This document shows, one piece after another, positions 1 through 64,000 of a stretch of DNA of 64,000 bases (position 1 is the stretch's first letter; every line of letters begins with the position of its first letter). Source of the DNA: a virus (lineage: Duplodnaviria > Heunggongvirae > Uroviricota > Caudoviricetes); IMG/VR virus record IMGVR_UViG_3300001798_000005; one strand, written 5' to 3'. The notes beneath the pieces were generated by a model. That model made no database searches, was not told where the DNA came from, and saw nothing but the letters and a program-made list of their open reading frames with translations. The position numbers and the translations under genes are program-made.

Positions 1-169
1 GTGATAGAGATCCCCGAGGGGGTGGATTTTGAGATACTGGATTACGACGGCTGGGAGTGGGTGGCGGAACGCCATCGGCGGTGGCCTGGATGACTTGGTT
101 TGAGGCTTTTCTCTGGACCCTTGCTGGGATCTGGATTGCAGAAAATTTAACAAAAAGAAAGGAAACAAA

Positions 170-451
170 ATGCAAACAATGAGTTTTGAAATTCCCCTCG
201 GGAGTGACGTTCAGGATGTCGTGACCGGCTTTAAGGGGCGGATTGATTCGGTTTGCCTGTGTCTAAATGGCTGCATCCGCTACAGTGTGACGCCGATGGT
301 CAAAGATGGCGGCATCGGGGAGGGCTATTGGTTTGACTCCCAGAGGATCGAACTCCTCGGACCAGGCATTAACGCCACCAAGCCCCAAGAGCAAACGGGG
401 ACCGGTGGGCCGATGACACGGAGCCTAATGGAAAAATCAGCCCGGGGGTGA
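170..451 (+). CDS. hypothetical protein (93 aa)
   Basis: ORF with AGGAAAC-N5-ATG RBS; no recognisable motif. Confidence 0.5.
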   Translation: MQTMSFEIPLGSDVQDVVTGFKGRIDSVCLCLNGCIRYSVTPMVKDGGIGEGYWFDSQRIELLGPGINATKPQEQTGTGGPMTRSLMEKSARG

Positions 452-461
452 GAATATGATA

Positions 462-527
462 ATACTCATAGAACTCCCTTATGGATTCTGGTATTATAAT
501 TGTATACCAGAAAGGGAAAGAGGAACG
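462..527 (+). promoter_or_regulatory. Conserved early promoter/operator copy 1: ATACTCAT box, TATAAT (495..500) centred in dyad CTGGTAT-N9-ATACCAG, RBS AAAGAGGAACG
   Basis: 44-nt stretch 484..527 is exactly repeated at 57978..58021; related copies at about 1510 and about 59592. Confidence 0.6.
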
Positions 528-531
528 CCCA

Positions 532-837
532 GTGAACGCCATCGAAACTGCCCAAGCCATCATCGCCAAAGCCCAAGCCACCCTGGCAGATCCCAGTGCT
601 GAACGCGCCAAAGGCGAGGCTTATGTGGACGCCTTGGCGGCTTCGGGAAATCAAGTCAACCAAGCCCTGGCGGCTGGGCTTGACCGGCACCACAGCGCCA
701 ATATCATCGCCCAAACGGATTTTGAATTTGATCGCCGGGACGCCTTCGGGCCTAAAGGAACCGTTCAAGATAGCCGAGAAAACCGCATTGAAGCGGCTGA
801 CCTCTTGGACGCCTTCGAAGAGGAAATGGGCTGGTAA
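532..837 (+). CDS. hypothetical protein (GTG start, about 101 aa)
   Basis: GTG at 532 sits at the same spacing after the conserved RBS as the ATG of the 58026 gene. The upstream ATG at 481 lies inside the promoter element. Confidence 0.5.
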   Translation: MNAIETAQAIIAKAQATLADPSAERAKGEAYVDALAASGNQVNQALAAGLDRHHSANIIAQTDFEFDRRDAFGPKGTVQDSRENRIEAADLLDAFEEEMGW

Positions 838-849
838 AAAAATAAATAT

Positions 850-885
850 ACCGATCGGTAGATTAATTTCTACCATAATAGAAGT
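850..885 (+). promoter_or_regulatory. Two adjacent palindromes (TACCGATCGGTA; GGTAGA-N6-TCTACC) in an AT-rich leader, candidate operator of the downstream RHH gene
   Basis: Perfect dyads read directly, about 60 bp upstream of the 938 ATG. Confidence 0.4.
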
Positions 886-937
886 ATAAACTATGCCATA
901 AGTATATACTATTGAGTTAATATGTAAAGGGGAAGTC

Positions 938-1312
938 ATGCCAAAAAACAACCCAGAGCCCAGGACGGCGCACATCTTCTCAATTCCGGATCGTGAATTT
1001 CAAGCCCTCAAGAGCTTGGCCGCCCAGGCGGGGGTTTCGATTGCTCAATACTGTGAGGACCTAATCATGCTCAATCCCGATATTGAGATTGAGAGAAAAG
1101 AAAAGTGCAAAAACAGAAATATCAACATGTCGGCCACCACCTGGGCGCGGCTCAAAGAGCGGGGAGACCAACTTGGAGTTTCGGCTTGCTCGGTCCTGAG
1201 GGGGTTAATCGGCCCAGCGGCCTTGGTGGATGTCAGATTCATGCAGAATGGTATTCATGTTGTGGCCTCCCCGATGGTCAAGAAGGTGGTCTATAACGCC
1301 CCAGGGGGGTAG
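938..1312 (+). CDS. tandem ribbon-helix-helix (CopG/Arc-like) DNA-binding protein
   Basis: Two RHH-like segments (FSIPDREFQALKSLAAQAGVSIAQYCEDLI and NMSATTWARLKERGDQLGVSACSVLRGLI). Confidence 0.45.
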   Translation: MPKNNPEPRTAHIFSIPDREFQALKSLAAQAGVSIAQYCEDLIMLNPDIEIERKEKCKNRNINMSATTWARLKERGDQLGVSACSVLRGLIGPAALVDVRFMQNGIHVVASPMVKKVVYNAPGG

Positions 1313-1509
1313 ATAAAGTCACCTGGAAGGCGAACCTAGACCCCTTAACTGGACCTCAGAAACCATTGCGCGGGCTCCCGCTCCCCCAAATGACACCAGG
1401 ATACAAGCCAGACATTTGGATGATGGGGGAAGCTTATCCTTCTTTGGAATAATTTTATTTACACAATACCCCTTAGCGAGCGCCAATAGGCGCTCTTTCC
1501 TTTTGTGAT

Positions 1510-1569
1510 AATCCTCATAGAAATATTGATCAAAACTATGGTATAATATCCTCATACCAGAAAGAAAAG
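1510..1569 (+). promoter_or_regulatory. Conserved early promoter/operator copy 3 (ATCCTCAT box 1511, TATAAT 1542, TGGTAT-N9-ATACCAG dyad)
   Basis: Shares box, -10 and dyad with copies 1, 2 and 4. Confidence 0.5.
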
Positions 1570-1599
1570 TTTATCAGTGCCCCTGAAAGGAGCCTACCG

Positions 1600-1803
1600 A
1601 TGCCTACCCCAACTCAACTCTGCCGCCTTAAAGGTCACTTAAAGGAACAATTCCTTCAGGCTCCAATCACGGTCATCACCGGAGAGGCAAGCGAGGCTTT
1701 CCCTCACCGGTGGGTGGCGGAACGTTATCCTGCTTCAATTTGCTTAACCTGGCAGGCCAAAGTAGATTATTGCCAAGAATGCTTTATTGAGCTTCCCGCC
1801 TAA
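1600..1803 (+). CDS. hypothetical protein (67 aa)
   Basis: ORF after GAAAGGAG RBS, downstream of promoter copy 3. Confidence 0.45.
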   Translation: MPTPTQLCRLKGHLKEQFLQAPITVITGEASEAFPHRWVAERYPASICLTWQAKVDYCQECFIELPA

Positions 1804-2077
1804 AGCGGCTCAGCCGCACCCCTGCGTGCCTCGCAACAAGCGGGGCACTTTAGGTTTTCACCCTTTCGGGCTGGCCACTCCTTGGCGGCTGAGTTGTAGT
1901 GTTCGTCCCAGTGGGTCGGGATCACACCTGAGGGGTTGGCTCTGGTCTTTTGACGATTGCCGCCCTGACCGTCCAGTTGGTCCTCGGCTGATGCCTCCAT
2001 CTTGCGGGTCTGTTGGGTCTTGATGTGTCGAGTATTCCAGTGGTGACAAACCCGAGGGTTGCGACGGGTACGGCTCA

Positions 2078-2404
2078 TCAATCCCACCAGTGGTTGCCGA
2101 GTCGGGCCACCATTTGCCAGATCCGATCCCAGTGGTATTTTTCCAGTTTTTCAGAATTTTCATACTGGGCACGCGCCAGTAACGCTTCACCGAAGCGCTT
2201 TTCAATCTTCCAGCCGTCAGGATCTTTAATACAATCCAGCTCCACCACTCCTGTACACAGCCACGGTGAATTCTGGTATCGATCAATATGGGTCCTCATT
2301 ATGGCGATCTGTTCCGCCCTTTTGGCCCCATCGAGCCTGTAGCCGTCCTGGACCGAGGCCTCTAGACGTTTCAGCTTAAAAGACATTATAGGCAAAATTG
2401 CCAA
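2078..2404 (-). CDS. hypothetical protein (108 aa)
   Basis: ORF only; lies in a GC-rich stretch with overlapping ORFs in all frames. Confidence 0.25.
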   Translation of the reverse strand: MAILPIMSFKLKRLEASVQDGYRLDGAKRAEQIAIMRTHIDRYQNSPWLCTGVVELDCIKDPDGWKIEKRFGEALLARAQYENSEKLEKYHWDRIWQMVARLGNHWWD

Positions 2405-2471
2405 AAAGTCAAAGTCATTATCTCACCAGATAATCGGTAGCCAATCCCAGGTTCGGCTTCTCTAATTCTCT

Positions 2472-2885
2472 TCATCTCCTGACCCACCCACGCGGTACAG
2501 GGCGGCCCTCTGATCTAAAGTAATAGGGTTGGACCCCCAATATTGAAATCATGTGCCTTAATGCCTCGCTGGGGGTATGGAAAAATCTCTTTACGTTCTG
2601 GAAGACCAGAATATTCCGATCCCGATAGTGTTTTCTTGCTTTTGGATCCCGATAGCCTCTTTTGACCTGGAGGCGTTTTGTGCGGATCTGATCGACGTCG
2701 AGGTATTCGATTTTGAAATCAAAGCCACTCCCGTCCTCAATAGAACCCATACGGGACCGCCGATAACGGATCAGATAGTCCCGATCCTGAGCCCGTCCCA
2801 GGAGGGCCTCCACGAAGTGCTCAGCCGCCAGGCCGAGCTGGCTAATGGGATCGTCGTAATTATGTTTAGTTTTGGTTTTCTTCAA
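2472..2885 (-). CDS. hypothetical protein (137 aa), possible nuclease-like fold
   Basis: ORF; weak D..E.K-like pattern (GFDFKIEY..QVK). Confidence 0.4.
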   Translation of the reverse strand: MKKTKTKHNYDDPISQLGLAAEHFVEALLGRAQDRDYLIRYRRSRMGSIEDGSGFDFKIEYLDVDQIRTKRLQVKRGYRDPKARKHYRDRNILVFQNVKRFFHTPSEALRHMISILGVQPYYFRSEGRPVPRGWVRR

Positions 2886-3039
2886 TGACCCATAACCTCG
2901 GGAAGCCGTCTATGAGGAGTTTCTGACCTTCAGAATCCCACCAGAGGGAGAAGGTAAAGAACTCTATTACTTCTGTAACTGTTTTTTGCATCATGTGGAT
3001 ATTTTATTATTTTTCTGAAATTTACGCAAGATGACCCAG

Positions 3040-3189
3040 CTACTGCCGGGCCATCTGCTCAATTTTTTCCTTATTGGCTTTGATCCATGCGTGTGCCTCG
3101 CGGGACATCCGGTGGCCGTAGATGACCTTCACCTCCTCTGGTGGCTTGGGTGGGCGGCCACGAGGGCGCTTGGGGGTTGAGTCAGGCAT
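3040..3189 (-). CDS. small AT-hook-like basic protein (49 aa)
   Basis: ATG overlaps the stop of the upstream gene (ATGCCTGA); RPRGRPPK motif. Confidence 0.3.
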   Translation of the reverse strand: MPDSTPKRPRGRPPKPPEEVKVIYGHRMSREAHAWIKANKEKIEQMARQ

Positions 3190-3544
3190 CGCGCTCAACC
3201 TCTATGCTAAGGCTCTCGCATAGGGCTAGTAGCTTTCTGGGCGGGGTATCCCCCTTCTTATTCCGCTCTGCTAGCGTGGCCAGTACCAGTTTTTTAAAAG
3301 CCTCTTTGCAGAGCACAGTTGATCTCCTGTATGTCAGTATGCCTGTGGACGGGCAATAGTCAATGTCTCTGACTAGAGGATCAGCTTCTAGATGAGAGGT
3401 CTGTGGGGGCTGGTATCCGAAGCCAACCAACCATTCAGCGTGGGTTATTTTGACAGAATCAAAATGGTATGACTCTCCGACACGCACAGCTTCATATATA
3501 CAGCCAGCTCTGTGTTGGCCCCTCTTGATGGCCTTTTTGCTCAT
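3182..3544 (-). CDS. hypothetical protein (120 aa)
   Basis: ORF only. Confidence 0.45.
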   Translation of the reverse strand: MSKKAIKRGQHRAGCIYEAVRVGESYHFDSVKITHAEWLVGFGYQPPQTSHLEADPLVRDIDYCPSTGILTYRRSTVLCKEAFKKLVLATLAERNKKGDTPPRKLLALCESLSIEVERDA

Positions 3545-3675
3545 TGGGTTACGTCCTTTCTGGCGGGATTGCCCGCAGCTCTTGGGTATGTAAGTATTAT
3601 CGTCGAGACGGGAAAGAAATGCAATAGTTTTTTGTCGTTACGTTTAATATTTCTTAAATTTTTGTTCTGTAAGAT

Positions 3676-3972
3676 CTATTTAGACAGGGGGAAGAAATAG
3701 GAAGCACGTGCTCTTGTCTGGACTTGTATTTTTTGCTCATCGATTAATTGATTAATCAAGCTATTTCGTTGGCTCTTATTTAGCCATTGAGTCTTTCTAG
3801 TTAGATCCATTTTGTAAATTCCACAATTATCTGAAATTATTTTATAAATTTTATCTTTCTCACTGTGCCGAGTTGGCTTAAACTCCCCCCTGGTGGTTAT
3901 TATTTCAATTATTTTATCCAGCTTCTCCTCCAGGGTGGTTATTTTGCTTAAAATGAAGTCAACAGTATCCAT
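3676..3972 (-). CDS. small wHTH-like protein sharing the C-terminal motif of the primase-polymerase (possible origin-binding regulator)
   Basis: C-terminus LTRKTQWLNKSQRNSLINQLIDEQKIQ versus primase C-terminus LTRKTQNLNKRRRTEILNDLVESHQIQ. Start assigned to the second ATG (AAAGGAG RBS). Confidence 0.5.
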   Translation of the reverse strand: MDTVDFILSKITTLEEKLDKIIEIITTRGEFKPTRHSEKDKIYKIISDNCGIYKMDLTRKTQWLNKSQRNSLINQLIDEQKIQVQTRARASYFFPLSK

Positions 3973-3999
3973 ATATGGCAATCTCCTTTGATAATTCAA

Positions 4000-4306
4000 G
4001 TATTATAATTGATTTTTTTGATTTTGTAATTCATGAAGTGTATTATTAAGAAAAATATACAACTACAATTGTAGCAATATACATGTGTAATAATATATAT
4101 ATAATATTAATATATATATTATTAATATTATATATAGTATAGATCATCTAGTACACTTCATCAACTTCACGCTTCAACCCCGGTACTGTCTCAGATACCG
4201 GGGTATGGATTTTTGGCTTGAAGCGTGAAGTGTGGGGTTGAAAACTTGTGGGTGATTGACTTTCAGCGATATTGAAATCTGACTGAAACGGGCTGAAGCG
4301 TGAAGC
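4000..4306. other. Candidate replication origin: AT-only tract 4081..4140, then iterons TGAAGCGTGAAG (4218, 4294 forward; 4167 inverted) and inverted repeat CCCCGGTA-N10-TACCGGGG (4178..4203)
   Basis: Read directly; lies immediately 3-prime of the primase/helicase gene and 5-prime of the wHTH paralog. Confidence 0.5.
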
Positions 4307-6502
4307 CTAAACTGGCTGGAAGATCCGCCAAATAGACGTCTTGCCATCATTATCGCATTGGATCTGGTGAGATTCAACCAGGTCATTCAGAATTTCGGTC
4401 CGGCGTCTTTTATTCAAATTTTGGGTTTTTCTCGTCAGGGCGGCCTGGGTGATTCCCTGATGGGCCTCGATGATCCGCAATACTTTTTTCAGCTCGCCCT
4501 CGGTTTCGTTGTCGCTGACGTGTTGGCTCACCATGGCCGCCATCCGGTCCGCTGACATCAGGGCGACGTCATTTGCCCAGCTGATTAGGTCTTTTGTGAT
4601 TACGCCATCCCAGGAGGCCGTGAGGGCGATTTTAGCCGAATGCTCAAAGGATCTCGACCAACACCCCTCCAGACCTGACTTGAGACGGATTTCTTCCGCC
4701 TGTCTGGCCCGGCAGGCGATCATGAAGTCATCCCAAGCCTTCTGGGCCTCTGGGGTCATGAGGATCACTTGAGGCCGGATGGCTGGTTTGCCCAGACTAC
4801 TGAGGTCTATCGCGACATGACCGCCCCTCGGGTGGGCATTGGTCGGCATCGCAGCCAGCTCCTTGATGGCGGATACGATCCCCTCTGGGGGTTCCCCGAT
4901 CCCCTGGCGGCAATGGGGGACGAGTTCAAAGCCTTTTTCTTCAAAATAGAGCCACCGGGCCATAAAGCCATCGCTGGACTCTGAACTCGACAGGGCCTCA
5001 TGGATGTGTTGCGGCACAGAAGTTGCATGAACGTTGAGGCACGGCTGGTCGATATCGGTTCTTCCACGCTTGCCGTCGGCGTTCCCGTACTCGGTTCCGG
5101 CGTAAATCTCGTTTGCCTCGCTGAAGAGCTTCAGCATGAGGGTAGTGATCCCCGCCTGGGGACCGGCGTTTTTTCCCGACATGTGCTTCAGGGTCCGGCC
5201 AAACTCGTCCAATTGCAAAAACGCCCGCCCGTTCCGTTCCGCCAAGGTCTTGAGCAATCCGGCCCCCGAGGCGGGGTCTCCCCCGATCAGGCCCGTCAGA
5301 CCGGCCTCAATCAGAAGAATATTGGCGCATTTTCGATTGTGGTCCTTTCCGGCCCCCGAGGCCGCCATCCCGAGAGTATAAAGGTTGGTCCTGAGGTCTG
5401 ATTCGGTCGCGACCCGATGAGCCCGAACGGCTCCCAGCATCGGTAGAGCTGCCGCCATGGCGAGTTCGGCCGACGGCCATGGGGCTCGGTCCATCATCCA
5501 CCGCACGATATCGCCCAACAACCCCGGTGCCCGCAGGAGGAGGTCATTTTGGACAATAGGGACTTCTACCCTTGGGAGTATATTCCCCCCTGGGATGATA
5601 CAGCCCCGATCTACCGGTGGGGGGGCGGGCTTGACCCAGCCATTTTCATAAGCCCAATAGAAGATCGATTCAATTTTCTTTTCATTTCTCTTAAAGGATT
5701 TCCACTTGCCCGGCTGACGCTTTTCCTGATACTTCAGACTGCTACGGCTCCACTGGTCCCAGAGGGGGAACCCCTGATCGCCCAGGTGGGTCTTGAGCGC
5801 CATCCCGACCTCGATCCAAGTATTGTAGTCATCCGCTGGAATACAGGACAGAGCGGACTCGATCTCCTGATCTGAGGTCCAACTGTAGTCTTGCTGGATC
5901 GCGTATGCCGCAGCGGGCTTGAAGCGCCGAAAAATATCGTCAACCCTTTCGCAAAAGTCAACCGGCAGTTGGGGAATTTTCTCAAAATCAACAGTCGTGA
6001 GGTCTTCCTCGGTGAGCCAGCGGTATTCTGCCCCGCAGGGGTGGACCGTCGGGGGGAGGACGGTCTGACGGCCATCTGAGAGGAGTTCAACCACCATATC
6101 GCCATGGAGTTTCCACTGGTGGGTTTCCTCCCCGGAATGGAGGTAAAAGGCCGTGAAGCCCTTTTCGCCCATCTTCTTTACTGGCGAATCCGGCACCATG
6201 GCCTGAATCTCTGCGTGGATGCCTTCGGCGTCAAAGTCATAATCCAAGGCCACCAGACACCCCAGCGGCCCGAGGGTCATCCCGATCCCGGCGTCGGGCC
6301 ATTTCTCCCAGGCTTCGATCTCAGACGGACTAGCGAGCCGGTGGCTGTAGTGCTTGGTCCACTCCCGCATCTTGCCCCAACGGTATTGCTGGATCTCGGG
6401 ATCAAAGTAGTAGCTCCCTGGAGCTTTCGTCCCTGGACAGATCGGGATAACGGGGAGGTCCTTTTCAACGTACCGGCGGGCGACTTGGGCGAATTTTGAC
6501 AT
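4307..6502 (-). CDS. primase-polymerase (prim-pol) / replicative helicase-like protein with C-terminal wHTH
   Basis: 731 aa. N-terminal prim-pol-like region (VIPICPGTKAP...LDYDF), central P-loop-like GMAASGAGKD, C-terminal wHTH. Confidence 0.55.
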   Translation of the reverse strand: MSKFAQVARRYVEKDLPVIPICPGTKAPGSYYFDPEIQQYRWGKMREWTKHYSHRLASPSEIEAWEKWPDAGIGMTLGPLGCLVALDYDFDAEGIHAEIQAMVPDSPVKKMGEKGFTAFYLHSGEETHQWKLHGDMVVELLSDGRQTVLPPTVHPCGAEYRWLTEEDLTTVDFEKIPQLPVDFCERVDDIFRRFKPAAAYAIQQDYSWTSDQEIESALSCIPADDYNTWIEVGMALKTHLGDQGFPLWDQWSRSSLKYQEKRQPGKWKSFKRNEKKIESIFYWAYENGWVKPAPPPVDRGCIIPGGNILPRVEVPIVQNDLLLRAPGLLGDIVRWMMDRAPWPSAELAMAAALPMLGAVRAHRVATESDLRTNLYTLGMAASGAGKDHNRKCANILLIEAGLTGLIGGDPASGAGLLKTLAERNGRAFLQLDEFGRTLKHMSGKNAGPQAGITTLMLKLFSEANEIYAGTEYGNADGKRGRTDIDQPCLNVHATSVPQHIHEALSSSESSDGFMARWLYFEEKGFELVPHCRQGIGEPPEGIVSAIKELAAMPTNAHPRGGHVAIDLSSLGKPAIRPQVILMTPEAQKAWDDFMIACRARQAEEIRLKSGLEGCWSRSFEHSAKIALTASWDGVITKDLISWANDVALMSADRMAAMVSQHVSDNETEGELKKVLRIIEAHQGITQAALTRKTQNLNKRRRTEILNDLVESHQIQCDNDGKTSIWRIFQPV

Positions 6503-6668
6503 CAGGCGACCTTTCTCTATATGGGTTTTTGATCGTACTCTATTGAGTCAAAAAGGTCAAAAAACAATCATTAAAAAATTCACTTGACCGATCGGATATT
6601 CTTTCGTAAGATTTTGGAATCGGAAAGCATCGCTTTTTGATACTTTATGAAAATGAAAAGGAACGCCC

Positions 6669-7496: not shown

Positions 7497-7962
7497 ATTT
7501 GACGCCACCGGGCAGCCTCAGCGGGAGGAATTCACCATTCTGCCCGACGGGAGCTATTCGGCGGTCTGCACGGCCTCCGAGATGGTGGCGAATAAATCCG
7601 GTGAAGGTCAACACCTTCTTTTGAAATTCAGCGTCTTTGAAGGCCCCCGAGAGGGCGCTTTCGTTTCGGACCGGCTGAATCTCGTCAACCCCAACCCCCA
7701 GACGGTCGAGATTGCCTATAAGGTTCTGACTGACCTCCTGCTGGCCATGGAGGGCGTTCGGGGGACCGCCAAAGTTGAAAATACGGATGACCTAATCGGG
7801 CACCCGGTGGTGATCAAAGTCGGGACCAACAAGGCGACTGAGCAGTATGGCCCCTCTAACAAGATCACCAAGTATTCCCCCTGGGTGGCTGGGTCTGCCC
7901 CGCAGCCCGTGGCCGTTGCGGTCGCGGCAGGACCGCCCGCGAAGGCGCCTTGGGAAAAATAG
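7483..7962 (+). CDS. DUF669-like protein (putative ssDNA-binding partner of Sak4)
   Basis: MARFEFDATG N-terminus and about 150-aa size typical of DUF669; gene order. Confidence 0.5.
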   Translation: MARFEFDATGQPQREEFTILPDGSYSAVCTASEMVANKSGEGQHLLLKFSVFEGPREGAFVSDRLNLVNPNPQTVEIAYKVLTDLLLAMEGVRGTAKVENTDDLIGHPVVIKVGTNKATEQYGPSNKITKYSPWVAGSAPQPVAVAVAAGPPAKAPWEK

Positions 7963-17747: not shown

Positions 17748-18408
17748 TAGGTTTCTCCTTTTCTGCAAAGTCACTACATTTCAGTTTTGTGATAATCCGA
17801 TTGCCTGATCGGGTCTTGAGTTCAACAACTGGGCGGGCCACGACGCCTTCAGCCCGGAAGGCCCCTCCATGGGTCCAGGTGGAATTGAATCCAACTTTGA
17901 CAAATTCAACCATTTCCAGCAGATTCCCTCGACCAACGATCGGAACGACCGAAAGGCCAAAAGTAGATGCTACATTTTCCAGATCAGGTCTTTTGAGCCA
18001 CCAATTGCCAACTTTGACGTCAAAGAGTACAAAGTCTTGATCGGGGCGATACAGTGCCCCAACTTTTTGGATCTTAGCCCCATAGCCCTCTCCGTAGAGG
18101 ACTGCGCCATTTGGAAAATCCTCATTGAGCTTTGCACTCTGATGGAAAAAGAGTTCTTCCAACCTGTTGATCAGGCTTGCTGGAATTTGAGCGTTAGCGG
18201 TCCGTCCCCCGAAGGATATCCTACCCCCATTGGCGATAGGGTCGACGATGATCCGAATATTGGTCCCATCGACTTTCTCGGTCCAGACCCAATCCATCAG
18301 CGCCAAATATTCAAAATATTCATTACTGTACTGCCCTTCCAGAAGGGCTTTTGATTTATTTTCAATATCCCGCTTGAAGACCGTGTTGATTTTGTGGTAT
18401 TCAGACAT
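17662..18408 (-). CDS. ATP-dependent RNA ligase-like nucleotidyltransferase (Rnl2-like)
   Basis: Motif I KVDGTN (KxDG), EGYG, FDVK, EGVVARP-like motifs; 248 aa. Confidence 0.55.
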   Translation of the reverse strand: MSEYHKINTVFKRDIENKSKALLEGQYSNEYFEYLALMDWVWTEKVDGTNIRIIVDPIANGGRISFGGRTANAQIPASLINRLEELFFHQSAKLNEDFPNGAVLYGEGYGAKIQKVGALYRPDQDFVLFDVKVGNWWLKRPDLENVASTFGLSVVPIVGRGNLLEMVEFVKVGFNSTWTHGGAFRAEGVVARPVVELKTRSGNRIITKLKCSDFAEKEKPNGSHFHRPGEANQEMENNFISPAGLIGL

Positions 18409-19051
18409 GGATTAACTCCTTTCCTGAACAGTTCCAACCGGGATATTCCCGCCGGGCAAATAATTCATATTTCTTTTCAACACCAGGATACATGGCCTCA
18501 ATGAGGGGATGGATGTCGGGCTTGCGGGAATGTTCCATGATTTTCTCCCGAATGATCGAGGGGGTCATCCGCTTGCCCCCAAAGGCCGCAGGCGTGACGC
18601 CTTGCCCCCGCGTGGCGATTATGCATATTTCGGCATTGGAAGCAGTATAGTGGCCAGGGCCATATTTAAGCTTTCCAGACCCTTTCTGTTCCTTTGTCCA
18701 CACAAAGCCAATGGTCGAGTATTCAAATCCCCACCCCTGGAGGACCGTCAGGGCATCATTGGGGCGGGTCCAGGTCTGAGTGGGCTTCCAGGAGGGTCGG
18801 CGACGCTGGCCATCGTACATCATCGGAAATGTCATCCACATGAACAGGATTGACCTCGGTCCCGCCAGGGCGGGGACGTCATACGTGATCGCAGGGTTGA
18901 TGATGTCCTGGGCCTTGAGGCATTCATAATGCCCGTCTGCCCCAGAGCCGAACCGGGTCCGGCCTCCACCGGTTAGGCGGTTGGCGTATTTCCAATTCGG
19001 ATCGGCCAAGAGGAGGGTCGCCTCAGGGAGCGGTTTTGTGATTTTAATCAT
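18401..19051 (-). CDS. MT-A70-family N6-adenine DNA methyltransferase
   Basis: LLADPNW (DPPW-type motif IV). Confidence 0.65.
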   Translation of the reverse strand: MIKITKPLPEATLLLADPNWKYANRLTGGGRTRFGSGADGHYECLKAQDIINPAITYDVPALAGPRSILFMWMTFPMMYDGQRRRPSWKPTQTWTRPNDALTVLQGWGFEYSTIGFVWTKEQKGSGKLKYGPGHYTASNAEICIIATRGQGVTPAAFGGKRMTPSIIREKIMEHSRKPDIHPLIEAMYPGVEKKYELFARREYPGWNCSGKELIHV

Positions 19052-40782: not shown

Positions 40783-41559
40783 TTAAACGACAGGATTCAA
40801 TTTGTCGTAAAGTTTCACACCCTCATCTGAAAACAGCGCTTTCGTGTAAGCTTGCTCAAAAGTTAGGCTTGGGTTTTTATCAACAATTTCTTTCGCCATA
40901 GCGGTTAGGCGGTCCTGAGGGGCTTTTTTCTCAACAGAAGCCTTGCCGACTTCCTTAAAGGCAGAACCCAGGGACTCATTGGCGGATTTCAAAACCTGAA
41001 GGGCGTATTCTTTATTATCGCCATCGAGGCCAGCCAAGGCTTTCAACAGTTGAGCCTTTTGGACTTCATCCCCAGGGAGGTTGGGGATTTCGGCATTTGC
41101 CTGTTTGGCAAATGCATTCAATTCCAGGACTTCCTGTTGGGACTTCAGGGTTTTGGCCATTTCAAGATTTTGTTTCACAACAGCTTCAAGCTGTTTCTGA
41201 ATGGTTTCCGAAAGCCCCTCTTTGGCAACTTCAGCGGCCTTGGCCTCAGCGGCCTCCTTGTCGGCGATCGCTTTAGCGACTTCCTGGGCGGCATCGGCTT
41301 GAGATTTGGCGAGTTTGTCCTCAGCGGTTTTTTGATCCGCCTGGGCCTGCTCAAGAGCTTTTTGCATTTCTTCCAAGGTCATTTTAGGGACTCCCTCATT
41401 AAATTCTGCATCTGTTTTAATTTCAGATTCCTCGATCATAGCATCCGAATCACACGATCCGTTTTTTGTCAACAGCATGTTGGCAAATTGATTTGCTCCA
41501 ATGGTGACATTTGATACTTCAGTGAGGATCAGCTTGTGACATTTCTTTTTAGCTTTCAT
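40783..41559 (-). CDS. scaffolding protein
   Basis: Ala/Glu/Lys-rich coiled coil between protease and decoration genes. Confidence 0.55.
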   Translation of the reverse strand: MKAKKKCHKLILTEVSNVTIGANQFANMLLTKNGSCDSDAMIEESEIKTDAEFNEGVPKMTLEEMQKALEQAQADQKTAEDKLAKSQADAAQEVAKAIADKEAAEAKAAEVAKEGLSETIQKQLEAVVKQNLEMAKTLKSQQEVLELNAFAKQANAEIPNLPGDEVQKAQLLKALAGLDGDNKEYALQVLKSANESLGSAFKEVGKASVEKKAPQDRLTAMAKEIVDKNPSLTFEQAYTKALFSDEGVKLYDKLNPVV

Positions 41560-42562
41560 CTAATTTTTCCCATACGGCATTGCCGCCTATTGAAAACATT
41601 TTGAGGTTGCCATCCTTGATGGATTTCCAAACCTCTGAATCGTCAATCTTCACACCAATCAGCCAGCCGACCTTTTTTAGATCAATCCCTAAAACCTTCT
41701 GAAGCTCTTTAGTGAACATCATCGATTCAACAATGGTTCCGGTGGATTCACCGACGTGCATTGTTTTATTGGATCTGGAGTCCTGCATGAATTCCACAAC
41801 CGCATCAGCCAAAACGTCTTCCGGGATGATGTCACCATGTTGGTCGATGACTTCTTTCCCGTCTTTCTCCACCACAGAGGCCCACCCATAGACGAGCTGT
41901 TTGTCAGTAGCGCCGGTCTTGATGATCTCCCCCTCCATCTTGAGGGTATCGGCCCAGTCGGTCCGGTAGGGCATCACTTCTTCCGCCTCGAAGGAAAGCT
42001 CAAAAGTCGGGAGCTTTACTTTAGAAAGATCAAAATTAAGTCCCACATTATAAGAGACCGTCACATGTGGCTCCCGGTATTCCGCCCAATCGAAATCCAT
42101 CCCGAGGGCAATTGCCTTCGTGTTTTGTTCATCTACCTCATGGCAGGGGAAGCTCAAAACCAAGGCCTCACGGTTTGGCCCAACGAACTTCAGAGAGTAA
42201 GGGGGGTATTCGTCATTTAACCCAATCTGTACCCGGATAGGGTTAACGAGCGGTTCATACCCGGCAAAACCATCAGGGGACCTGATGACGGTACAGTGAA
42301 GGAGTTCAGCCGGGACCGGGTTGGGGATCTTATTCTCTTCCGCCCATCTGGAAAGATTCACCTCAGTGGTGGCGTCGGGTTTCATCCATGAATAGATGCC
42401 GGCCGATTCCTTCCAGGTCCGTTCAGGAGATAAAAAACCCTGCTTCTCGACGGCGATCCAAGCGGCAAAGGATCGGTGGATCTCCCCCTGGTTGGGGGCA
42501 GCCAGGTAAGCCTTGTAGAAGGCTTCACGGGCTGGCATGTTGGGGATTTGGTTAAAGTCCAT
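41549..42562 (-). CDS. fusion of N-terminal 2H phosphoesterase (LigT/CPDase-like) domain and C-terminal XkdF-like (S78) prohead protease domain
   Basis: Two H-x-T-x motifs (LHCTVI, PHVTVS) about 79 aa apart; C-terminus LVYGWASVVEKDG...HGDIIPED...HVGESTG resembles XkdF-type proteins (from memory). Confidence 0.45.
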   Translation of the reverse strand: MDFNQIPNMPAREAFYKAYLAAPNQGEIHRSFAAWIAVEKQGFLSPERTWKESAGIYSWMKPDATTEVNLSRWAEENKIPNPVPAELLHCTVIRSPDGFAGYEPLVNPIRVQIGLNDEYPPYSLKFVGPNREALVLSFPCHEVDEQNTKAIALGMDFDWAEYREPHVTVSYNVGLNFDLSKVKLPTFELSFEAEEVMPYRTDWADTLKMEGEIIKTGATDKQLVYGWASVVEKDGKEVIDQHGDIIPEDVLADAVVEFMQDSRSNKTMHVGESTGTIVESMMFTKELQKVLGIDLKKVGWLIGVKIDDSEVWKSIKDGNLKMFSIGGNAVWEKLDES

Positions 42563-52012: not shown

Positions 52013-52362
52013 TGCCTTTTTACGAGTTACCCGGCCCAAAGGTTGTTGAAAAGTACACTGAATATCTTCGTATAGCAAAGGCAGACCCAAATGGTGAATG
52101 GAATTCAAATGAATATTGGATGAGTTGTGGCTTTAAGGCCGCCTGCACAATGTTTTTTGGCACTGTGTACGCTGGCTCTCTTATAATGCAGTCCGATAGT
52201 TTGCTTGAGGAGGAGACAGCCCAGGCCGTCCAGACCTTCCCTGAGGCCTACGAGGGCGCCAAGGCCAGACAGCCACTAGTGGGCGAGATTCTGCAACTTT
52301 CCCCGATTCCGGGAAAGTTGGATGTGCCACGCTTCTCCAGCACAGATGAGCCGGGGGTGTAG
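52013..52362 (+). CDS. hypothetical protein
   Basis: ORF. Confidence 0.4.
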
Positions 52363-52366
52363 GCGG

Positions 52367-52936
52367 ATGAAGGTACTTGTTGGCTGCGAATTCAGTGGGA
52401 TTGTGCGGGACGCCTTTCTGATGGCTGGTCACGAGGCTGTATCCTGCGACCTTCTTCCCACGGAAAGCCCAGGGCCTCACATTCAAGGTAATATTCTGGA
52501 TCATTTGGATGACGGGTGGGACCTAGGCATTTTCCACCCGCCTTGCACCTACTTATCGAATAGCGGGGTCCGCTGGCTGCATTCCGACCCGAAGCGGTGG
52601 GAACTTATGGCCGATGCGGCTCATTTTTTCAACACGATCTTGTCCGCTAATATCCCCTCGATCTGTGTCGAAAACCCGATCCAACATAAATACGCGCGGG
52701 CGCTTATCCCATTGTATCAACAGATCATACACCCGTGGCAGTACGGACACCCGGAATCAAAGACGACTTGTCTTTGGCTTAAGAACCTACACCCCTTAGT
52801 GACAACAAGAATCATGGAGGAGCGGGAACAAAGGCTTTGGAAGCTGCCGCCCAGCCTAACCCGCTGGAAGAAGCGCAGTGTTACTTATGCCGGAATCGCT
52901 CAGGCGATGGCAGAGCAATGGAGCAAGTATGCATAA
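52367..52936 (+). CDS. short DNA (cytosine-5)-methyltransferase-like protein lacking an obvious target-recognition domain
   Basis: Motif I-like GCEFSG, motif IV PPC (FHPPCTYLS), motif VI ENP (ICVENP); only about 190 aa. Confidence 0.4.
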   Translation: MKVLVGCEFSGIVRDAFLMAGHEAVSCDLLPTESPGPHIQGNILDHLDDGWDLGIFHPPCTYLSNSGVRWLHSDPKRWELMADAAHFFNTILSANIPSICVENPIQHKYARALIPLYQQIIHPWQYGHPESKTTCLWLKNLHPLVTTRIMEEREQRLWKLPPSLTRWKKRSVTYAGIAQAMAEQWSKYA

Positions 52937-58025: not shown

Positions 58026-58250
58026 ATGAACAGCCCGAAAACGAAACCAGAACGCCTTCAAGAAGAACTTGAACTTTCCCTGGATGTCCTTGACTCACTC
58101 CAGGAGAAAATTGCCGCAATGCGGATCCTCTTGGAAACCGGCAAGGCTGATCAGTATGCTGGCCGAGAGCTTCGATTCGCTGAAGCGTCCCTGCCGGGGG
58201 CTGAGTATGATATCCGGCGGTTTCAAGAAGCGATTGCCCTTTCAGCTTAG
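58026..58250 (+). CDS. hypothetical protein (74 aa)
   Basis: ATG at conserved spacing after repeated RBS. Confidence 0.5.
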   Translation: MNSPKTKPERLQEELELSLDVLDSLQEKIAAMRILLETGKADQYAGRELRFAEASLPGAEYDIRRFQEAIALSA

Positions 58251-58886
58251 GCTGAAGGGCTCGCCGTTGCGGGTGATCGGGAGGGTGGGGTAAACTCTTC
58301 TAACTTTATAGAGCATCTCATCACACGCCTGCGGGCTGCCAGAACCAACAATGAGCTGGTGTGTGCCTATGTCAAAAATATCACCCGGTTGACAAAATCC
58401 AGTTTCAGGCGCCTGTGGGGGCGGGGCCATTGGAGCTTCCAACTCCTCAACGGATTCCCCCAAGTCCAGATCGGGGAAATTGATCTCATCCAGCAATTCT
58501 GAAAGATCTATATCCTCCACGAAGGCGTCAAAGCTCTCCTGGGTGATGGTGCCGTGCTCGCTTGATGCCTGGAGGACCAGGGCCTTCGCGCCTTCGATGG
58601 ACTCGGCCCATATCTCGACAACCGGGAGGTCTGGCACGGTATAACCTTCGGCCTCTAGTTCCGCCAAGGCCTTGCAGCGCCCAGCGCCGTCGATGATGAG
58701 GCGGTGATCGGCCCAGACGTAGAAAGGAAAGCAGAATCCACGGTTGACTATTGCGTTTTTGAGTTTTGAGATATCTCGGTCCTCAACGGCCTTGAGGGTA
58801 TTGGCCTCGAAGGTCTTCAGCTCCCCCCAGGAGAGGGTTGGAACGTTTTGGACCTGAATGGGGAAGGTCTTTTGTTTCTTGGCCAT
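58242..58886 (-). CDS. ParB/Srx-like N-terminal nuclease-domain protein
   Basis: NAIVNRGFCFPFYVWADHRLIIDGAGRCKAL; acidic C-terminal half. Confidence 0.4.
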   Translation of the reverse strand: MAKKQKTFPIQVQNVPTLSWGELKTFEANTLKAVEDRDISKLKNAIVNRGFCFPFYVWADHRLIIDGAGRCKALAELEAEGYTVPDLPVVEIWAESIEGAKALVLQASSEHGTITQESFDAFVEDIDLSELLDEINFPDLDLGESVEELEAPMAPPPQAPETGFCQPGDIFDIGTHQLIVGSGSPQACDEMLYKVRRVYPTLPITRNGEPFSLS

Positions 58887-58894
58887 GTGTGTCT

Positions 58895-58917
58895 CCAATT
58901 AGGAAGTTCCTAATTGG
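58895..58917. promoter_or_regulatory. 23-nt palindrome CCAATTAGGAA-G-TTCCTAATTGG overlapping the RBS of the ParB-like gene (operator or parS-like site)
   Basis: Perfect 11-bp arms read directly. Confidence 0.45.
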
Positions 58918-59821: not shown

Positions 59822-60108
59822 AGGTCGTAATTTCTGAATGTCATGGGGGCTTTGGGTTGTCTGAGGCCGCCCAGATGTGGATCGCGGAAAAGGGATTGAA
59901 CCCTGATGCCCTCTTGGCCCAGTGGACCGCTGGGGAGCTGCGGGGGCTCCAGGTCCTAGTTGATTGCGTGGAAGCCCTTGGGGAGCGGGTCAACACCTCT
60001 TTCTCAAAGCTCTCCGTGATAGAGATCCCCGAGGGGGTGGATTTTGAGATACTGGATTACGACGGCTGGGAGTGGGTGGCGGAACGCCATCGGCGGTGGC
60101 CTGGATGA
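59818..60108 (+). CDS. hypothetical protein
   Basis: ORF; its 3-prime end is window positions 1..93 in the left copy. Confidence 0.45.
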   Translation: MKVVISECHGGFGLSEAAQMWIAEKGLNPDALLAQWTAGELRGLQVLVDCVEALGERVNTSFSKLSVIEIPEGVDFEILDYDGWEWVAERHRRWPG

Positions 60109-60184
60109 CTTGGTTTGAGGCTTTTCTCTGGACCCTTGCTGGGATCTGGATTGCAGAAAATTTAACAAAAAGAAAGGAAACAAA

Positions 60185-60466
60185 ATGCAAACAATGAGTT
60201 TTGAAATTCCCCTCGGGAGTGACGTTCAGGATGTCGTGACCGGCTTTAAGGGGCGGATTGATTCGGTTTGCCTGTGTCTAAATGGCTGCATCCGCTACAG
60301 TGTGACGCCGATGGTCAAAGATGGCGGCATCGGGGAGGGCTATTGGTTTGACTCCCAGAGGATCGAACTCCTCGGACCAGGCATTAACGCCACCAAGCCC
60401 CAAGAGCAAACGGGGACCGGTGGGCCGATGACACGGAGCCTAATGGAAAAATCAGCCCGGGGGTGA
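60185..60466 (+). CDS. duplicate of 170..451
   Basis: identical. Confidence 0.5.
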   Translation: MQTMSFEIPLGSDVQDVVTGFKGRIDSVCLCLNGCIRYSVTPMVKDGGIGEGYWFDSQRIELLGPGINATKPQEQTGTGGPMTRSLMEKSARG

Positions 60467-60546
60467 GAATATGATAATACTCATAGAACTCCCTTATGGA
60501 TTCTGGTATTATAATTGTATACCAGAAAGGGAAAGAGGAACGCCCA

Positions 60547-60852
60547 GTGAACGCCATCGAAACTGCCCAAGCCATCATCGCCAAAGCCCAAGCCACCCTG
60601 GCAGATCCCAGTGCTGAACGCGCCAAAGGCGAGGCTTATGTGGACGCCTTGGCGGCTTCGGGAAATCAAGTCAACCAAGCCCTGGCGGCTGGGCTTGACC
60701 GGCACCACAGCGCCAATATCATCGCCCAAACGGATTTTGAATTTGATCGCCGGGACGCCTTCGGGCCTAAAGGAACCGTTCAAGATAGCCGAGAAAACCG
60801 CATTGAAGCGGCTGACCTCTTGGACGCCTTCGAAGAGGAAATGGGCTGGTAA
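60547..60852 (+). CDS. duplicate of 532..837
   Basis: identical. Confidence 0.5.
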   Translation: MNAIETAQAIIAKAQATLADPSAERAKGEAYVDALAASGNQVNQALAAGLDRHHSANIIAQTDFEFDRRDAFGPKGTVQDSRENRIEAADLLDAFEEEMGW

Positions 60853-60952
60853 AAAAATAAATATACCGATCGGTAGATTAATTTCTACCATAATAGAAGT
60901 ATAAACTATGCCATAAGTATATACTATTGAGTTAATATGTAAAGGGGAAGTC

Positions 60953-61327
60953 ATGCCAAAAAACAACCCAGAGCCCAGGACGGCGCACATCTTCTCAATT
61001 CCGGATCGTGAATTTCAAGCCCTCAAGAGCTTGGCCGCCCAGGCGGGGGTTTCGATTGCTCAATACTGTGAGGACCTAATCATGCTCAATCCCGATATTG
61101 AGATTGAGAGAAAAGAAAAGTGCAAAAACAGAAATATCAACATGTCGGCCACCACCTGGGCGCGGCTCAAAGAGCGGGGAGACCAACTTGGAGTTTCGGC
61201 TTGCTCGGTCCTGAGGGGGTTAATCGGCCCAGCGGCCTTGGTGGATGTCAGATTCATGCAGAATGGTATTCATGTTGTGGCCTCCCCGATGGTCAAGAAG
61301 GTGGTCTATAACGCCCCAGGGGGGTAG
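60953..61327 (+). CDS. duplicate of RHH gene 938..1312
   Basis: identical. Confidence 0.45.
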   Translation: MPKNNPEPRTAHIFSIPDREFQALKSLAAQAGVSIAQYCEDLIMLNPDIEIERKEKCKNRNINMSATTWARLKERGDQLGVSACSVLRGLIGPAALVDVRFMQNGIHVVASPMVKKVVYNAPGG

Positions 61328-61614
61328 ATAAAGTCACCTGGAAGGCGAACCTAGACCCCTTAACTGGACCTCAGAAACCATTGCGCGGGCTCCCGCTCCC
61401 CCAAATGACACCAGGATACAAGCCAGACATTTGGATGATGGGGGAAGCTTATCCTTCTTTGGAATAATTTTATTTACACAATACCCCTTAGCGAGCGCCA
61501 ATAGGCGCTCTTTCCTTTTGTGATAATCCTCATAGAAATATTGATCAAAACTATGGTATAATATCCTCATACCAGAAAGAAAAGTTTATCAGTGCCCCTG
61601 AAAGGAGCCTACCG

Positions 61615-61818
61615 ATGCCTACCCCAACTCAACTCTGCCGCCTTAAAGGTCACTTAAAGGAACAATTCCTTCAGGCTCCAATCACGGTCATCACCGGAGA
61701 GGCAAGCGAGGCTTTCCCTCACCGGTGGGTGGCGGAACGTTATCCTGCTTCAATTTGCTTAACCTGGCAGGCCAAAGTAGATTATTGCCAAGAATGCTTT
61801 ATTGAGCTTCCCGCCTAA
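61615..61818 (+). CDS. duplicate of 1600..1803
   Basis: identical. Confidence 0.45.
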   Translation: MPTPTQLCRLKGHLKEQFLQAPITVITGEASEAFPHRWVAERYPASICLTWQAKVDYCQECFIELPA

Positions 61819-62486
61819 AGCGGCTCAGCCGCACCCCTGCGTGCCTCGCAACAAGCGGGGCACTTTAGGTTTTCACCCTTTCGGGCTGGCCACTCCTTGG
61901 CGGCTGAGTTGTAGTGTTCGTCCCAGTGGGTCGGGATCACACCTGAGGGGTTGGCTCTGGTCTTTTGACGATTGCCGCCCTGACCGTCCAGTTGGTCCTC
62001 GGCTGATGCCTCCATCTTGCGGGTCTGTTGGGTCTTGATGTGTCGAGTATTCCAGTGGTGACAAACCCGAGGGTTGCGACGGGTACGGCTCATCAATCCC
62101 ACCAGTGGTTGCCGAGTCGGGCCACCATTTGCCAGATCCGATCCCAGTGGTATTTTTCCAGTTTTTCAGAATTTTCATACTGGGCACGCGCCAGTAACGC
62201 TTCACCGAAGCGCTTTTCAATCTTCCAGCCGTCAGGATCTTTAATACAATCCAGCTCCACCACTCCTGTACACAGCCACGGTGAATTCTGGTATCGATCA
62301 ATATGGGTCCTCATTATGGCGATCTGTTCCGCCCTTTTGGCCCCATCGAGCCTGTAGCCGTCCTGGACCGAGGCCTCTAGACGTTTCAGCTTAAAAGACA
62401 TTATAGGCAAAATTGCCAAAAAGTCAAAGTCATTATCTCACCAGATAATCGGTAGCCAATCCCAGGTTCGGCTTCTCTAATTCTCT

Positions 62487-62900
62487 TCATCTCCTGACCC
62501 ACCCACGCGGTACAGGGCGGCCCTCTGATCTAAAGTAATAGGGTTGGACCCCCAATATTGAAATCATGTGCCTTAATGCCTCGCTGGGGGTATGGAAAAA
62601 TCTCTTTACGTTCTGGAAGACCAGAATATTCCGATCCCGATAGTGTTTTCTTGCTTTTGGATCCCGATAGCCTCTTTTGACCTGGAGGCGTTTTGTGCGG
62701 ATCTGATCGACGTCGAGGTATTCGATTTTGAAATCAAAGCCACTCCCGTCCTCAATAGAACCCATACGGGACCGCCGATAACGGATCAGATAGTCCCGAT
62801 CCTGAGCCCGTCCCAGGAGGGCCTCCACGAAGTGCTCAGCCGCCAGGCCGAGCTGGCTAATGGGATCGTCGTAATTATGTTTAGTTTTGGTTTTCTTCAA
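62487..62900 (-). CDS. duplicate of 2472..2885
   Basis: identical. Confidence 0.4.
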   Translation of the reverse strand: MKKTKTKHNYDDPISQLGLAAEHFVEALLGRAQDRDYLIRYRRSRMGSIEDGSGFDFKIEYLDVDQIRTKRLQVKRGYRDPKARKHYRDRNILVFQNVKRFFHTPSEALRHMISILGVQPYYFRSEGRPVPRGWVRR

Positions 62901-63196
62901 TGACCCATAACCTCGGGAAGCCGTCTATGAGGAGTTTCTGACCTTCAGAATCCCACCAGAGGGAGAAGGTAAAGAACTCTATTACTTCTGTAACTGTTTT
63001 TTGCATCATGTGGATATTTTATTATTTTTCTGAAATTTACGCAAGATGACCCAGCTACTGCCGGGCCATCTGCTCAATTTTTTCCTTATTGGCTTTGATC
63101 CATGCGTGTGCCTCGCGGGACATCCGGTGGCCGTAGATGACCTTCACCTCCTCTGGTGGCTTGGGTGGGCGGCCACGAGGGCGCTTGGGGGTTGAG

Positions 63197-63559: not shown

Positions 63560-63690
63560 TGGGTTACGTCCTTTCTGGCGGGATTGCCCGCAGCTCTTGG
63601 GTATGTAAGTATTATCGTCGAGACGGGAAAGAAATGCAATAGTTTTTTGTCGTTACGTTTAATATTTCTTAAATTTTTGTTCTGTAAGAT

Positions 63691-63987: not shown

Positions 63988-64000
63988 ATATGGCAATCTC

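Follow-up and report, generated by a model that had tools for sequence, protein, structure and literature searches.

We describe here a candidate replication origin, and beside it a gene for a small putative DNA-binding protein, in a 64,000-nucleotide stretch of DNA (the window) from a tailed virus of the Caudoviricetes (IMG/VR record IMGVR_UViG_3300001798_000005). The region in question, positions 3676 to 6502, encodes a 731-amino-acid (aa) protein with primase and helicase domains, an interval of short repeats and A/T-only sequence directly 3′ of that gene, and, on the other side of the repeats, a 98-aa protein. With moderate confidence we favor a reading in which positions 4031 to 4305 are the phage replication origin, of the type served by Rep of Staphylococcus aureus pathogenicity islands (SaPI) and phage-inducible chromosomal islands (PICI), and in which the 98-aa protein modulates loading of the initiator. 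The origin part of this reading is well supported by comparison with relatives, and we hold it with considerable confidence. For the 98-aa protein, the role of a modulator, probably negative, and autoregulator seems most likely, and here our confidence is modest. Positions 1 to 3985 recur at 60016 to 64000 with 0 mismatches, so that the window covers one complete circular genome, of 60,015 bp, and runs on past its start.

A candidate iteron origin directly downstream of the primase-helicase gene

Read in the sense of the primase gene, the stop codon is followed by CTTCAcgCTTCA, about 60 nt, a second CTTCAcgCTTCA, a GC-rich hairpin, TGAAGcgTGAAGttgaTGAAG, a 49-bp A/T tract, the palindrome CTACAATTGTAG, and CACTTCATG; beyond CACTTCATG come a promoter-like site, a Shine-Dalgarno (SD) sequence, and then the start codon (ATG) of the small gene (Table 1). 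An initial annotation of the sequence had noted a 12-mer, TGAAGCGTGAAG, occurring twice in direct and once in inverted orientation, and exact coordinates bear this out: there are exactly three copies, at 4219 to 4230 and 4294 to 4305 on the plus strand and inverted at 4165 to 4176. Elsewhere in the genome the 12-mer has no match at one mismatch or fewer (chance expectation, 0.18), and three copies were reached in none of 100 shuffles. The actual repeat unit is the pentamer CTTCA, present eight times between 4034 and 4305, which makes this the densest 300-nt interval of the genome (8 copies versus a mean of 1.16). One of the eight copies lies beyond the A/T tract, on the side far from the primase gene.

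The hairpin CCCCGGTA-N10-TACCGGGG between the 12-mer copies, also part of the initial annotation, is present and significant as DNA structure (folding free energy, −11 kcal/mol; z = −4.75). A 13-bp outer stem formed by the repeat arms encloses it, and the two together make a 68-nt compound stem-loop (−24.3 kcal/mol; z = −6.7). The 60-nt stretch at 4081 to 4140 that had been described as A/T only is a real AT island, but its pure run is 49 nt (4088 to 4136), as C4082, G4085, G4087, and G4137 leave 56 of 60 positions A or T. The tract is both the longest A/T run and the sole extreme AT island of the 60-kb genome. A promoter-like site lies on the far side of the repeats, with its −35 hexamer 3 nt from the far-side iteron. 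A scan of positions 3400 to 4600 against Rfam returned 0 RNA families.

Table 1. Positions of the candidate origin elements and neighboring genes in the window
Feature	Position	Strand	Remarks
Window-specific segment, about 1.07 kb	2967..4030		L003 has about 120 nt instead
98-aa orphan gene	3676..3972	−	N-terminal amphipathic helix, residues 3-27; winged helix, residues 38-94; GC 0.35
Sigma-70-like promoter ATTACA-17-TATAAT	4002..4030	−	Consensus match only, 10/12; reads away from the origin into the small gene
Far-side iteron CACTTCATGA	4031..4040	−	Pentamer 4034-4038; inverted versus the triplet across the A/T tract; L003 counterpart tacaCGTCAaa
Perfect 12-bp palindrome CTACAATTGTAG	4063..4074		Also in L003 (about 3593-3604)
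Pure A/T tract, 49 bp	4088..4136		Presumed DNA-unwinding element; nearly identical in L003
Iteron triplet, CTTCAtcaaCTTCAcgCTTCA on plus strand	4156..4176	+	Opposite orientation; adjoins the A/T tract
GC-rich hairpin CCCCGGTA-N10-TACCGGGG	4178..4203		Arms 4178-4185 and 4196-4203; between direct and inverted iterons
Iteron doublet 2, CTTCAcgCTTCA in primase sense	4219..4230	−	Left arm of the large inverted repeat
Iteron doublet 1, CTTCAcgCTTCA in primase sense	4294..4305	−	Begins 1 nt past the primase stop codon
Initiator gene, 731 aa	4307..6502	−	Pfam and PHROG matches; AlphaFold2 model
C-terminal linker helix and winged helix, residues 637-731	4310..4594	−	Part homologous to the 98-aa protein; BLASTP E = 8e-11

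Conservation of the layout of the candidate origin in related loci

The region was compared with about 160 related loci, and tile statistics were made on 79 nonredundant loci with 944 control tiles. A scan of viral contigs with the single primase protein had given 0 matches, and an alignment-based scan succeeded. In the closest relative, L003, the primase is 79% identical and the order of repeats, hairpin, inverted repeats, A/T tract, palindrome, and repeat is kept. Its A/T tract and the adjoining CATGTATAT...CTACAATTGTAG are nearly identical to ours and are conserved more than the primase protein itself. Every repeat of L003, on both sides of the A/T tract, is CGTCA in place of CTTCA. A concerted change of all repeat copies with kept geometry is the pattern expected if protein-binding repeats coevolve with the protein that reads them.

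Loci L004, L005, L168, and L169, with primases at about 40% identity or below, share this layout, namely, direct repeats, a hairpin in some, inverted repeats, an A/T tract, and further repeats, each with its own repeat unit; in L171 the layout is less clear. The units are GTTTCA (17 copies) in L004, AACGTC (12 copies; CGTCAA core) in L005, TGTCAA in L168, (A/C)TTCAA, including seven copies of AATTCAA, in L169, and ACTCAA in L171. The hairpin between direct and inverted iterons reaches significance in three cases, the window, L003, and L004 (z between −4.2 and −5.9), weak in L005, and absent from L168, and in L003 and L004 it keeps its position with a different sequence. The palindrome CTACAATTGTAG is kept in the closest relative and not in more distant ones. 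More broadly, the 650 nt past the primase stop codon are the lowest-GC tile of the locus in 37 of the 79 nonredundant loci, and at least four copies of a 9-mer occur there in 18 of the 79, versus 8 of 944 control tiles. The conserved layout and the concerted change of repeats across relatives, together with the match to SaPI origins discussed below, support the initial proposal of an iteron origin directly 3′ of the primase-helicase gene. A short T-run follows the hairpin, on the strand opposite the primase, in the window, L003, and L004.

The putative initiator

From the N terminus, the 731-aa protein comprises an archaeo-eukaryotic primase (AEP) PrimPol domain (residues 8 to 178), PriCT_2 (215 to 284), a DUF3987 AAA+/superfamily 6 (SF6) helicase (about 320 to 630), a long helix (637 to 661), and a C-terminal winged helix (666 to 727). 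The Pfam matches are Prim-Pol (PF09250; E = 9.6e-16), PriCT_2, and DUF3987. The AlphaFold2 (AF2) model, with a predicted local distance difference test (pLDDT) score of 86.7, has an AAA+ core, and the best solved structures found with it by Foldseek are MCM subunits (MCM2-7 and archaeal MCM; probability, 1.0). DUF3987 is a helicase with measured unwinding activity that has been assigned to SF6 (PMC11724360), and the MCM-like structural match of the helicase part fits that assignment. A profile of 30 family members, compared with all Protein Data Bank (PDB) sequences at an E value of ≤0.01, retrieved only the prim-pol of pRN1 ORF904 (1rni, 1ro0, and 3m1m; about 1e-8). The C-terminal profile matches the winged helix of RPC6 at 2.4e-5, the AF2 model has the winged-helix topology H-b-H-H-b-b (H, helix; b, strand) at residues 666 to 727, and the C-terminal module of helix plus winged helix is found throughout the primase family.

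We propose that the C-terminal winged helix would read the CTTCA pentamers and that the initiator would self-assemble on the repeats as an MCM-like hexamer. The A/T tract would then be melted by the initiator and primed by the initiator's own AEP domain.

A small protein homologous to the C-terminal module of the putative initiator

That the 98-aa protein is a genuine homolog of the C-terminal module of the initiator, as the initial annotation had read from the two C termini, we regard as nearly certain. BLASTP aligns it to the C terminus of the 731-aa protein with 24 of 65 identities (37%; E = 8e-11), and it also matches dozens of other primases, always at the extreme C terminus. Its AF2 model (pLDDT, 84.9 overall and 89 to 97 in the winged helix) consists of a long amphipathic N-terminal helix with heptad-like hydrophobic spacing and, after it, the elements H-b-H-H-b-b, in the order that they have in the primase model. 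The N-terminal helix aligns loosely with the linker helix of the initiator. Foldseek related the small model to the winged helices of MarR, ArsR/SmtB, TFIIE, and ORC, with E values that are weak (at least 7e-3) but uniform, and the rpc34 winged helix 2dk8 was matched by both models.

The initial annotation had gone further and called the small protein a free-standing copy of the initiator's DNA-binding domain. The winged-helix domain is indeed common to both, but the gene is not a local copy, because its GC content is 0.35 (0.38 at third codon positions) versus 0.57 (0.68) for the primase gene and because its product is closer to the C terminus of another primase, the fragment P0123 (50% identity), than to its neighbor (37%). 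Nor is it a conserved part of the replication module, as neither the closest relative nor any of the other related loci has it. It lies in the segment that separates the window from L003, which also holds the promoter of the small gene, a 120-aa orphan open reading frame (ORF; 3182 to 3544), and a 52-aa ORF (3040 to 3198). A word-indexed search of 5.8 billion clustered proteins returned only the 98-aa protein itself. A phmmer search of 1.84 billion representatives gave no free-standing counterpart, its matches being the protein itself, two primase C termini, and one spurious repeat protein. Likewise, within ±4 kb of the approximately 160 related loci there was no free-standing primase C terminus besides those of two split primase genes (L100 and L131). 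The gene is probably foreign and horizontally acquired, by this genome alone. It looks expressible, to judge from the promoter-like site and from an SD sequence, AAGGAG, at 3983 to 3988 with a 10-nt spacer to the ATG.

Three minor observations belong to these searches. The second-best phmmer match of the 98-aa protein, P0122 (613 aa), is highly repetitive, was matched in nine stretches, and was judged spurious. The winged-helix ORFs of L131 (6037 to 8993) and L100 (5992 to 6240) are 3′ remainders of split primases, that of L131 being split by an IS21-like element with istA/istB-like ORFs. The 52-aa ORF on the minus strand (49 aa in the public gene call) contains an AT-hook-like motif, KRPRGRPPKP, about 0.9 kb from the A/T tract and has no Pfam or PHROG match.

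What the small protein might bind is suggested by its recognition segment. It keeps a TRKTQxLNKxxR segment and carries TRKTQWLNKSQR. A (T/V/S)RKTQ signature in H2-H3 goes with NTCAA-core repeats at 8 of 8 loci (the window, L003, L004, L005, L028, L168, L169, and L171), and an NTCAA core accompanies other signatures at about 3 of 13 loci. Phylogenetic relatedness among the loci keeps these counts from being a formal test. The link is suggestive as a pointer to the target of the 98-aa protein. Because the segment is kept, and because it is linked to NTCAA-core repeats in relatives, we infer that the 98-aa protein may bind the same repeats as the initiator or overlapping ones. As a stand-alone DNA-binding module made of a coiled-coil-like helix and a winged helix, it would probably read repeats with a TCA core; it could sit on the resident repeats but would neither unwind nor prime there. 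Its gene would be transcribed away from the origin, from a promoter adjoining the far-side pentamer. Such a protein could modulate initiator loading, likely as a damper or timer, and could autoregulate its own promoter.

We considered GTCAAAAA, present twice, 9 nt apart, at 6547 to 6564 in the divergent primase/Sak4 promoter region, as a pair of operators for the 98-aa protein. The candidate was rejected, as the motif is largely kept in L003, which is without the protein, and resembles TTGAC −35 boxes.

Comparison with known replicons

The origins used by SaPI Rep consist of 6 to 12 penta- or hexanucleotide iterons directly downstream of rep, opposed across an AT-rich center with at least two on each side, and are recognized by a winged helix in the C-terminal domain of Rep, a helicase that self-loads without ATP (PMC9371898). 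The region in the window has several features of this arrangement. Like SaPI/PICI Rep and the fused PriRep5, the putative initiator joins an AAA+ helicase (MCM-like/SF6) to a C-terminal winged helix and, as an optional part of such proteins, to a fused primase. The origin lies directly downstream of the initiator ORF, its eight CTTCA copies fall within the range of 6 to 12, the center is AT rich, the iterons are opposed, and the iteron sequence varies between elements. Differences are the far side of the A/T tract, which has only one clear iteron, the GC hairpin and the 12-bp palindrome, which are extra elements here, and the replicon itself, which is a 60-kb tailed phage and not a satellite. 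Moreover, no stand-alone gene for a C-terminal domain is described for SaPIs in PMC9371898. SaPI Rep homology was retrieved neither by the 30-member profile search of the PDB nor among the top 50 Foldseek matches. By analogy, then, we file the element as one that would work like a SaPI-type origin, without membership in the SaPI Rep family at the level of sequence.

The Sulfolobus plasmid pRN1 offers a second comparison. Its ORF904 replicon has as cis-essential element a stem-loop just 3′ of the gene, and the same 3′ stem-loop has been proposed for phages with prim-pol, helicase, and winged-helix proteins, for example, BIP-1 (PMC4234260). The AEP prim-pol of the window is homologous to that of ORF904, both proteins join prim-pol, helicase, and C-terminal winged helix in one chain, and the 68-nt compound stem-loop likewise lies 3′ of the gene. 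However, the pRN1 protein has a superfamily 3 helicase and its replicon has no iterons (PMC4234260), whereas here the helicase is of the DUF3987 (SF6/MCM-like) kind and the arms of the stem are themselves iterons beside a pure A/T tract.

Phage P4, with which the initial annotation had compared the region, turned out to be an analogy only. P4 alpha joins primase, helicase, and a C-terminal origin-binding domain in one protein, the crr iteron cluster lies directly 3′ of alpha, and a small protein, Cnr (106 aa), regulates replication. Cnr acts via alpha and is not known to bind DNA itself, and it has been reported to stimulate the binding of alpha. The gene of Cnr is upstream of alpha. The record of alpha annotates it as a DNA primase, and the pRN1 work places it with the bacterial (Toprim) primases and not with the AEPs (PMC4234260). 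We rejected the 98-aa protein as a homolog of Cnr: BLASTP gave no alignment between the two, an E value of 3.7 for the 98-aa protein with alpha, and an E value of 14 for Cnr with alpha, so that Cnr is without similarity to either the alpha C terminus or the 98-aa protein.

A further comparison is with truncated initiators that act as antagonists, such as the short forms of R6K pi, HSV-1 OBPC/UL8.5, and papillomavirus E8^E2. The best-supported precedent is RepR′ of pIGRK, an N-truncated initiator that antagonizes initiation and corepresses the rep promoter (PMC6854812). In all of them a shorter protein keeps the DNA-binding domain of the initiator without its catalytic or loading part, as does the 98-aa protein by BLASTP and AF2 topology. 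Proteins of the RepR′ type bind origin and promoter DNA, and the pIGRK form represses replication and autoregulates. Those proteins arise from within the initiator gene, however, and are sequence identical to its C terminus, whereas here the gene is separate, lies 334 nt downstream of the primase stop codon, encodes a protein 37% identical to the initiator part, has foreign composition, and adds a new N-terminal helix.

Alternative explanations

Several observations weigh against the favored reading. On the side of the origin, the window has a sole clear far-side pentamer (4034 to 4038), versus the SaPI rule of at least two on each side, and three iterons adjoin the A/T tract on the primase side; far-side repeats number one clear copy in the window, two in L003, and five in L004. 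The AT island is missing in about half of the related loci, including the prophage-like ones of Isosphaeraceae. GC skew, which the initial annotation had suggested as a means of finding the origin, has no switch at 4.1 kb; its cumulative turns at about 15 kb and 51 kb coincide with flips of gene orientation, which the skew tracks, and it was dropped as uninformative here. On the side of the small protein, its winged helix is 37% identical to the resident one and 50% identical to that of a foreign primase, P0123, from a locus (L168) whose repeats are TGTCAA, and no TGTCAA cluster is present anywhere in the genome. A version in which the 98-aa protein has its own TGTCAA-type sites in the genome was rejected on the same result. 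The gene is a singleton without an ortholog, so that purifying selection cannot be shown, and its absence from L003 means that it is dispensable for the replication module. Finally, whether its effect is negative or positive is a guess. The copy-number or handcuffing role first proposed for it is weakened as well, since neither plasmid-type maintenance genes nor an integrase or partition gene was recognized among 38 ORFs scanned.

The repeats might instead be transcriptional punctuation, with a terminator-like hairpin, an AT-rich promoter, and operators, perhaps for a 98-aa repressor of early genes. A strong stem-loop stands just past the primase stop codon, a near-consensus promoter leads into the small gene, and the fold of the 98-aa protein resembles MarR/ArsR repressors. 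Yet an intrinsic terminator scan found none, and on neither strand does the hairpin qualify as a canonical terminator. Moreover, L003, L004, L005, L168, and L169 have the same layout of repeats and A/T tract, with up to 17 repeats, without the small protein, the repeats vary in sequence along with the lineage of the primase, and known Rep origins have the very same layout. We give this explanation very little credence. The opposite sign of action, in which the 98-aa protein is a positive accessory factor that prebinds or bends the repeats or contacts the initiator via its N-terminal helix and so aids hexamer loading, strikes us as equally remote. It would account for the DNA-binding signature that the protein has in common with the resident initiator and for the loose alignment of its N-terminal helix with the linker helix, and it resembles the reported stimulation of alpha binding by Cnr; L003, however, has the same origin and manages without the protein, and no homology to Cnr was found by BLASTP.

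Other explanations leave the origin in place and concern the small gene. It could be a nonfunctional relic: recombination would have brought the 3′ end of a foreign primase gene in beside the origin, where its frame is still open by chance or was captured only recently. That the gene is a singleton of foreign-like GC content, closest to the C terminus of another primase and situated within an indel relative to L003, fits such a history, and split primase C termini are known elsewhere (L100 and L131). The gene nonetheless has its own ATG with an SD sequence and a 10/12 promoter match, a chance open frame of 98 codons is improbable in DNA of 35% GC, the N-terminal amphipathic helix is novel, the winged helix is intact and confidently modeled, and the flanks are without a remaining primase gene or a second set of repeats. 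We consider a relic unlikely. It is very unlikely, in our judgment, that the protein is a weapon against rivals, that is, a helicase-less origin binder with TGTCAA-type specificity that blocks the origin of a coinfecting competitor and spares the resident CTTCA origin. In H2-H3 the protein reads DLTRKTQWLNKSQR and P0123 reads DLTRKTQWLNKKQR, a near identity, and the P0123 locus (L168) has TGTCAA repeats, and the resident genome combines the lack of a TGTCAA cluster with a gene of foreign-looking composition. However, the specificity rests on about 12 residues, the promoter inside the resident origin suggests a connection in cis, a host shared with such competitors has no support, and the example is single.

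A broader scenario would join some of these elements. In it, a lytic phage captured the winged-helix module of another phage's primase-helicase, added a dimerizing helix, and placed the promoter in its own origin, which would yield a trans-acting origin blocker. The blocker would either turn off theta-type initiation in favor of recombination-dependent replication (Sak4, SSB, and a Cas4-like nuclease are encoded nearby) or jam the origins of competitors of the TRKTQ/NTCAA class. We regard this scenario as quite unlikely. The reading that we favor remains a SaPI-type origin whose initiator is modulated by the 98-aa protein.

Implications

The origin itself is ordinary in kind, and the stand-alone winged-helix gene, taken as a system, is at most a variant of the truncated-initiator theme. 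The interest of the origin lies in extending the SaPI-type rule, by which iterons and an A/T tract directly follow the initiator gene, to PrimPol-PriCT_2-DUF3987 phages, a large family that is uncultured and of which some members probably infect Planctomycetes. The family offers many natural pairs of initiator and repeat that had not been described before, such as CTTCA versus CGTCA at 79% primase identity, from which the recognition code of the winged helix could be read. The stand-alone winged-helix gene matters only if it is functional. In that case it would be a trans-encoded, horizontally acquired truncated-initiator antagonist, a logic so far known from in-frame isoforms, or, alternatively, an example of origin-directed interference between phages. 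Gene callers, moreover, put false genes across such origins. In L004, a public call of a 104-aa gene (7560 to 7874) falls wholly on the array of GTTTCA iterons that follows the primase gene and is probably a false gene.

Genome context and minor observations

The phage is tailed and siphovirus-like, with terminase, portal, tape measure, and J-like tail protein genes on the minus strand between 15 and 50 kb. A replication and recombination module occupies 4.3 to 15 kb, with the primase on the minus strand and, on the plus strand, a Sak4-like AAA_24 protein, a DUF669 protein resembling single-stranded DNA-binding protein (SSB), a Cas4-like nuclease, a PIF1-type helicase, an exonuclease, and an SNF2-type helicase. 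Neither a DNA polymerase nor a repressor gene was recognized among the 38 ORFs scanned, and because no polymerase was recognized, the phage may rely on the host polymerase together with its own prim-pol. Among cultured phage records, a nucleotide search gave 0 matches and a protein search gave relatives of less than 30% identity only.

The nearest cellular matches of the primase are prophage-like loci in Isosphaeraceae (Planctomycetes), and there is a hint of a planctomycete host range for the phage group. Three loci with primases of about 40% identity, L006 (Tautonia marina), L015 (an uncultured virus contig), and L089 (Tundrisphaera lichenicola), are without the AT island and repeats after the gene, and their origin may lie elsewhere or be differently built. 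The two Isosphaeraceae genomes among these three carry the locus in a prophage-like setting.

The same genome also exists in the European Nucleotide Archive (ENA), as a 60,156-bp contig, and in Logan, as a 57,510-bp contig; the compared stretches are identical over 13,475 bases. The pair L001 and L002, considered as a source of polymorphism, was uninformative, as these contigs are identical. Owing to the circular wrap, the left part of the region, up to position 3985 and including the 3′ part of the 98-aa gene, recurs in truncated form where the window ends on the right. DNA methyltransferase matches in PHROG were found in four ORFs, at 18401 to 19051, 41549 to 42562, 52322 to 52936, and 58242 to 58898.

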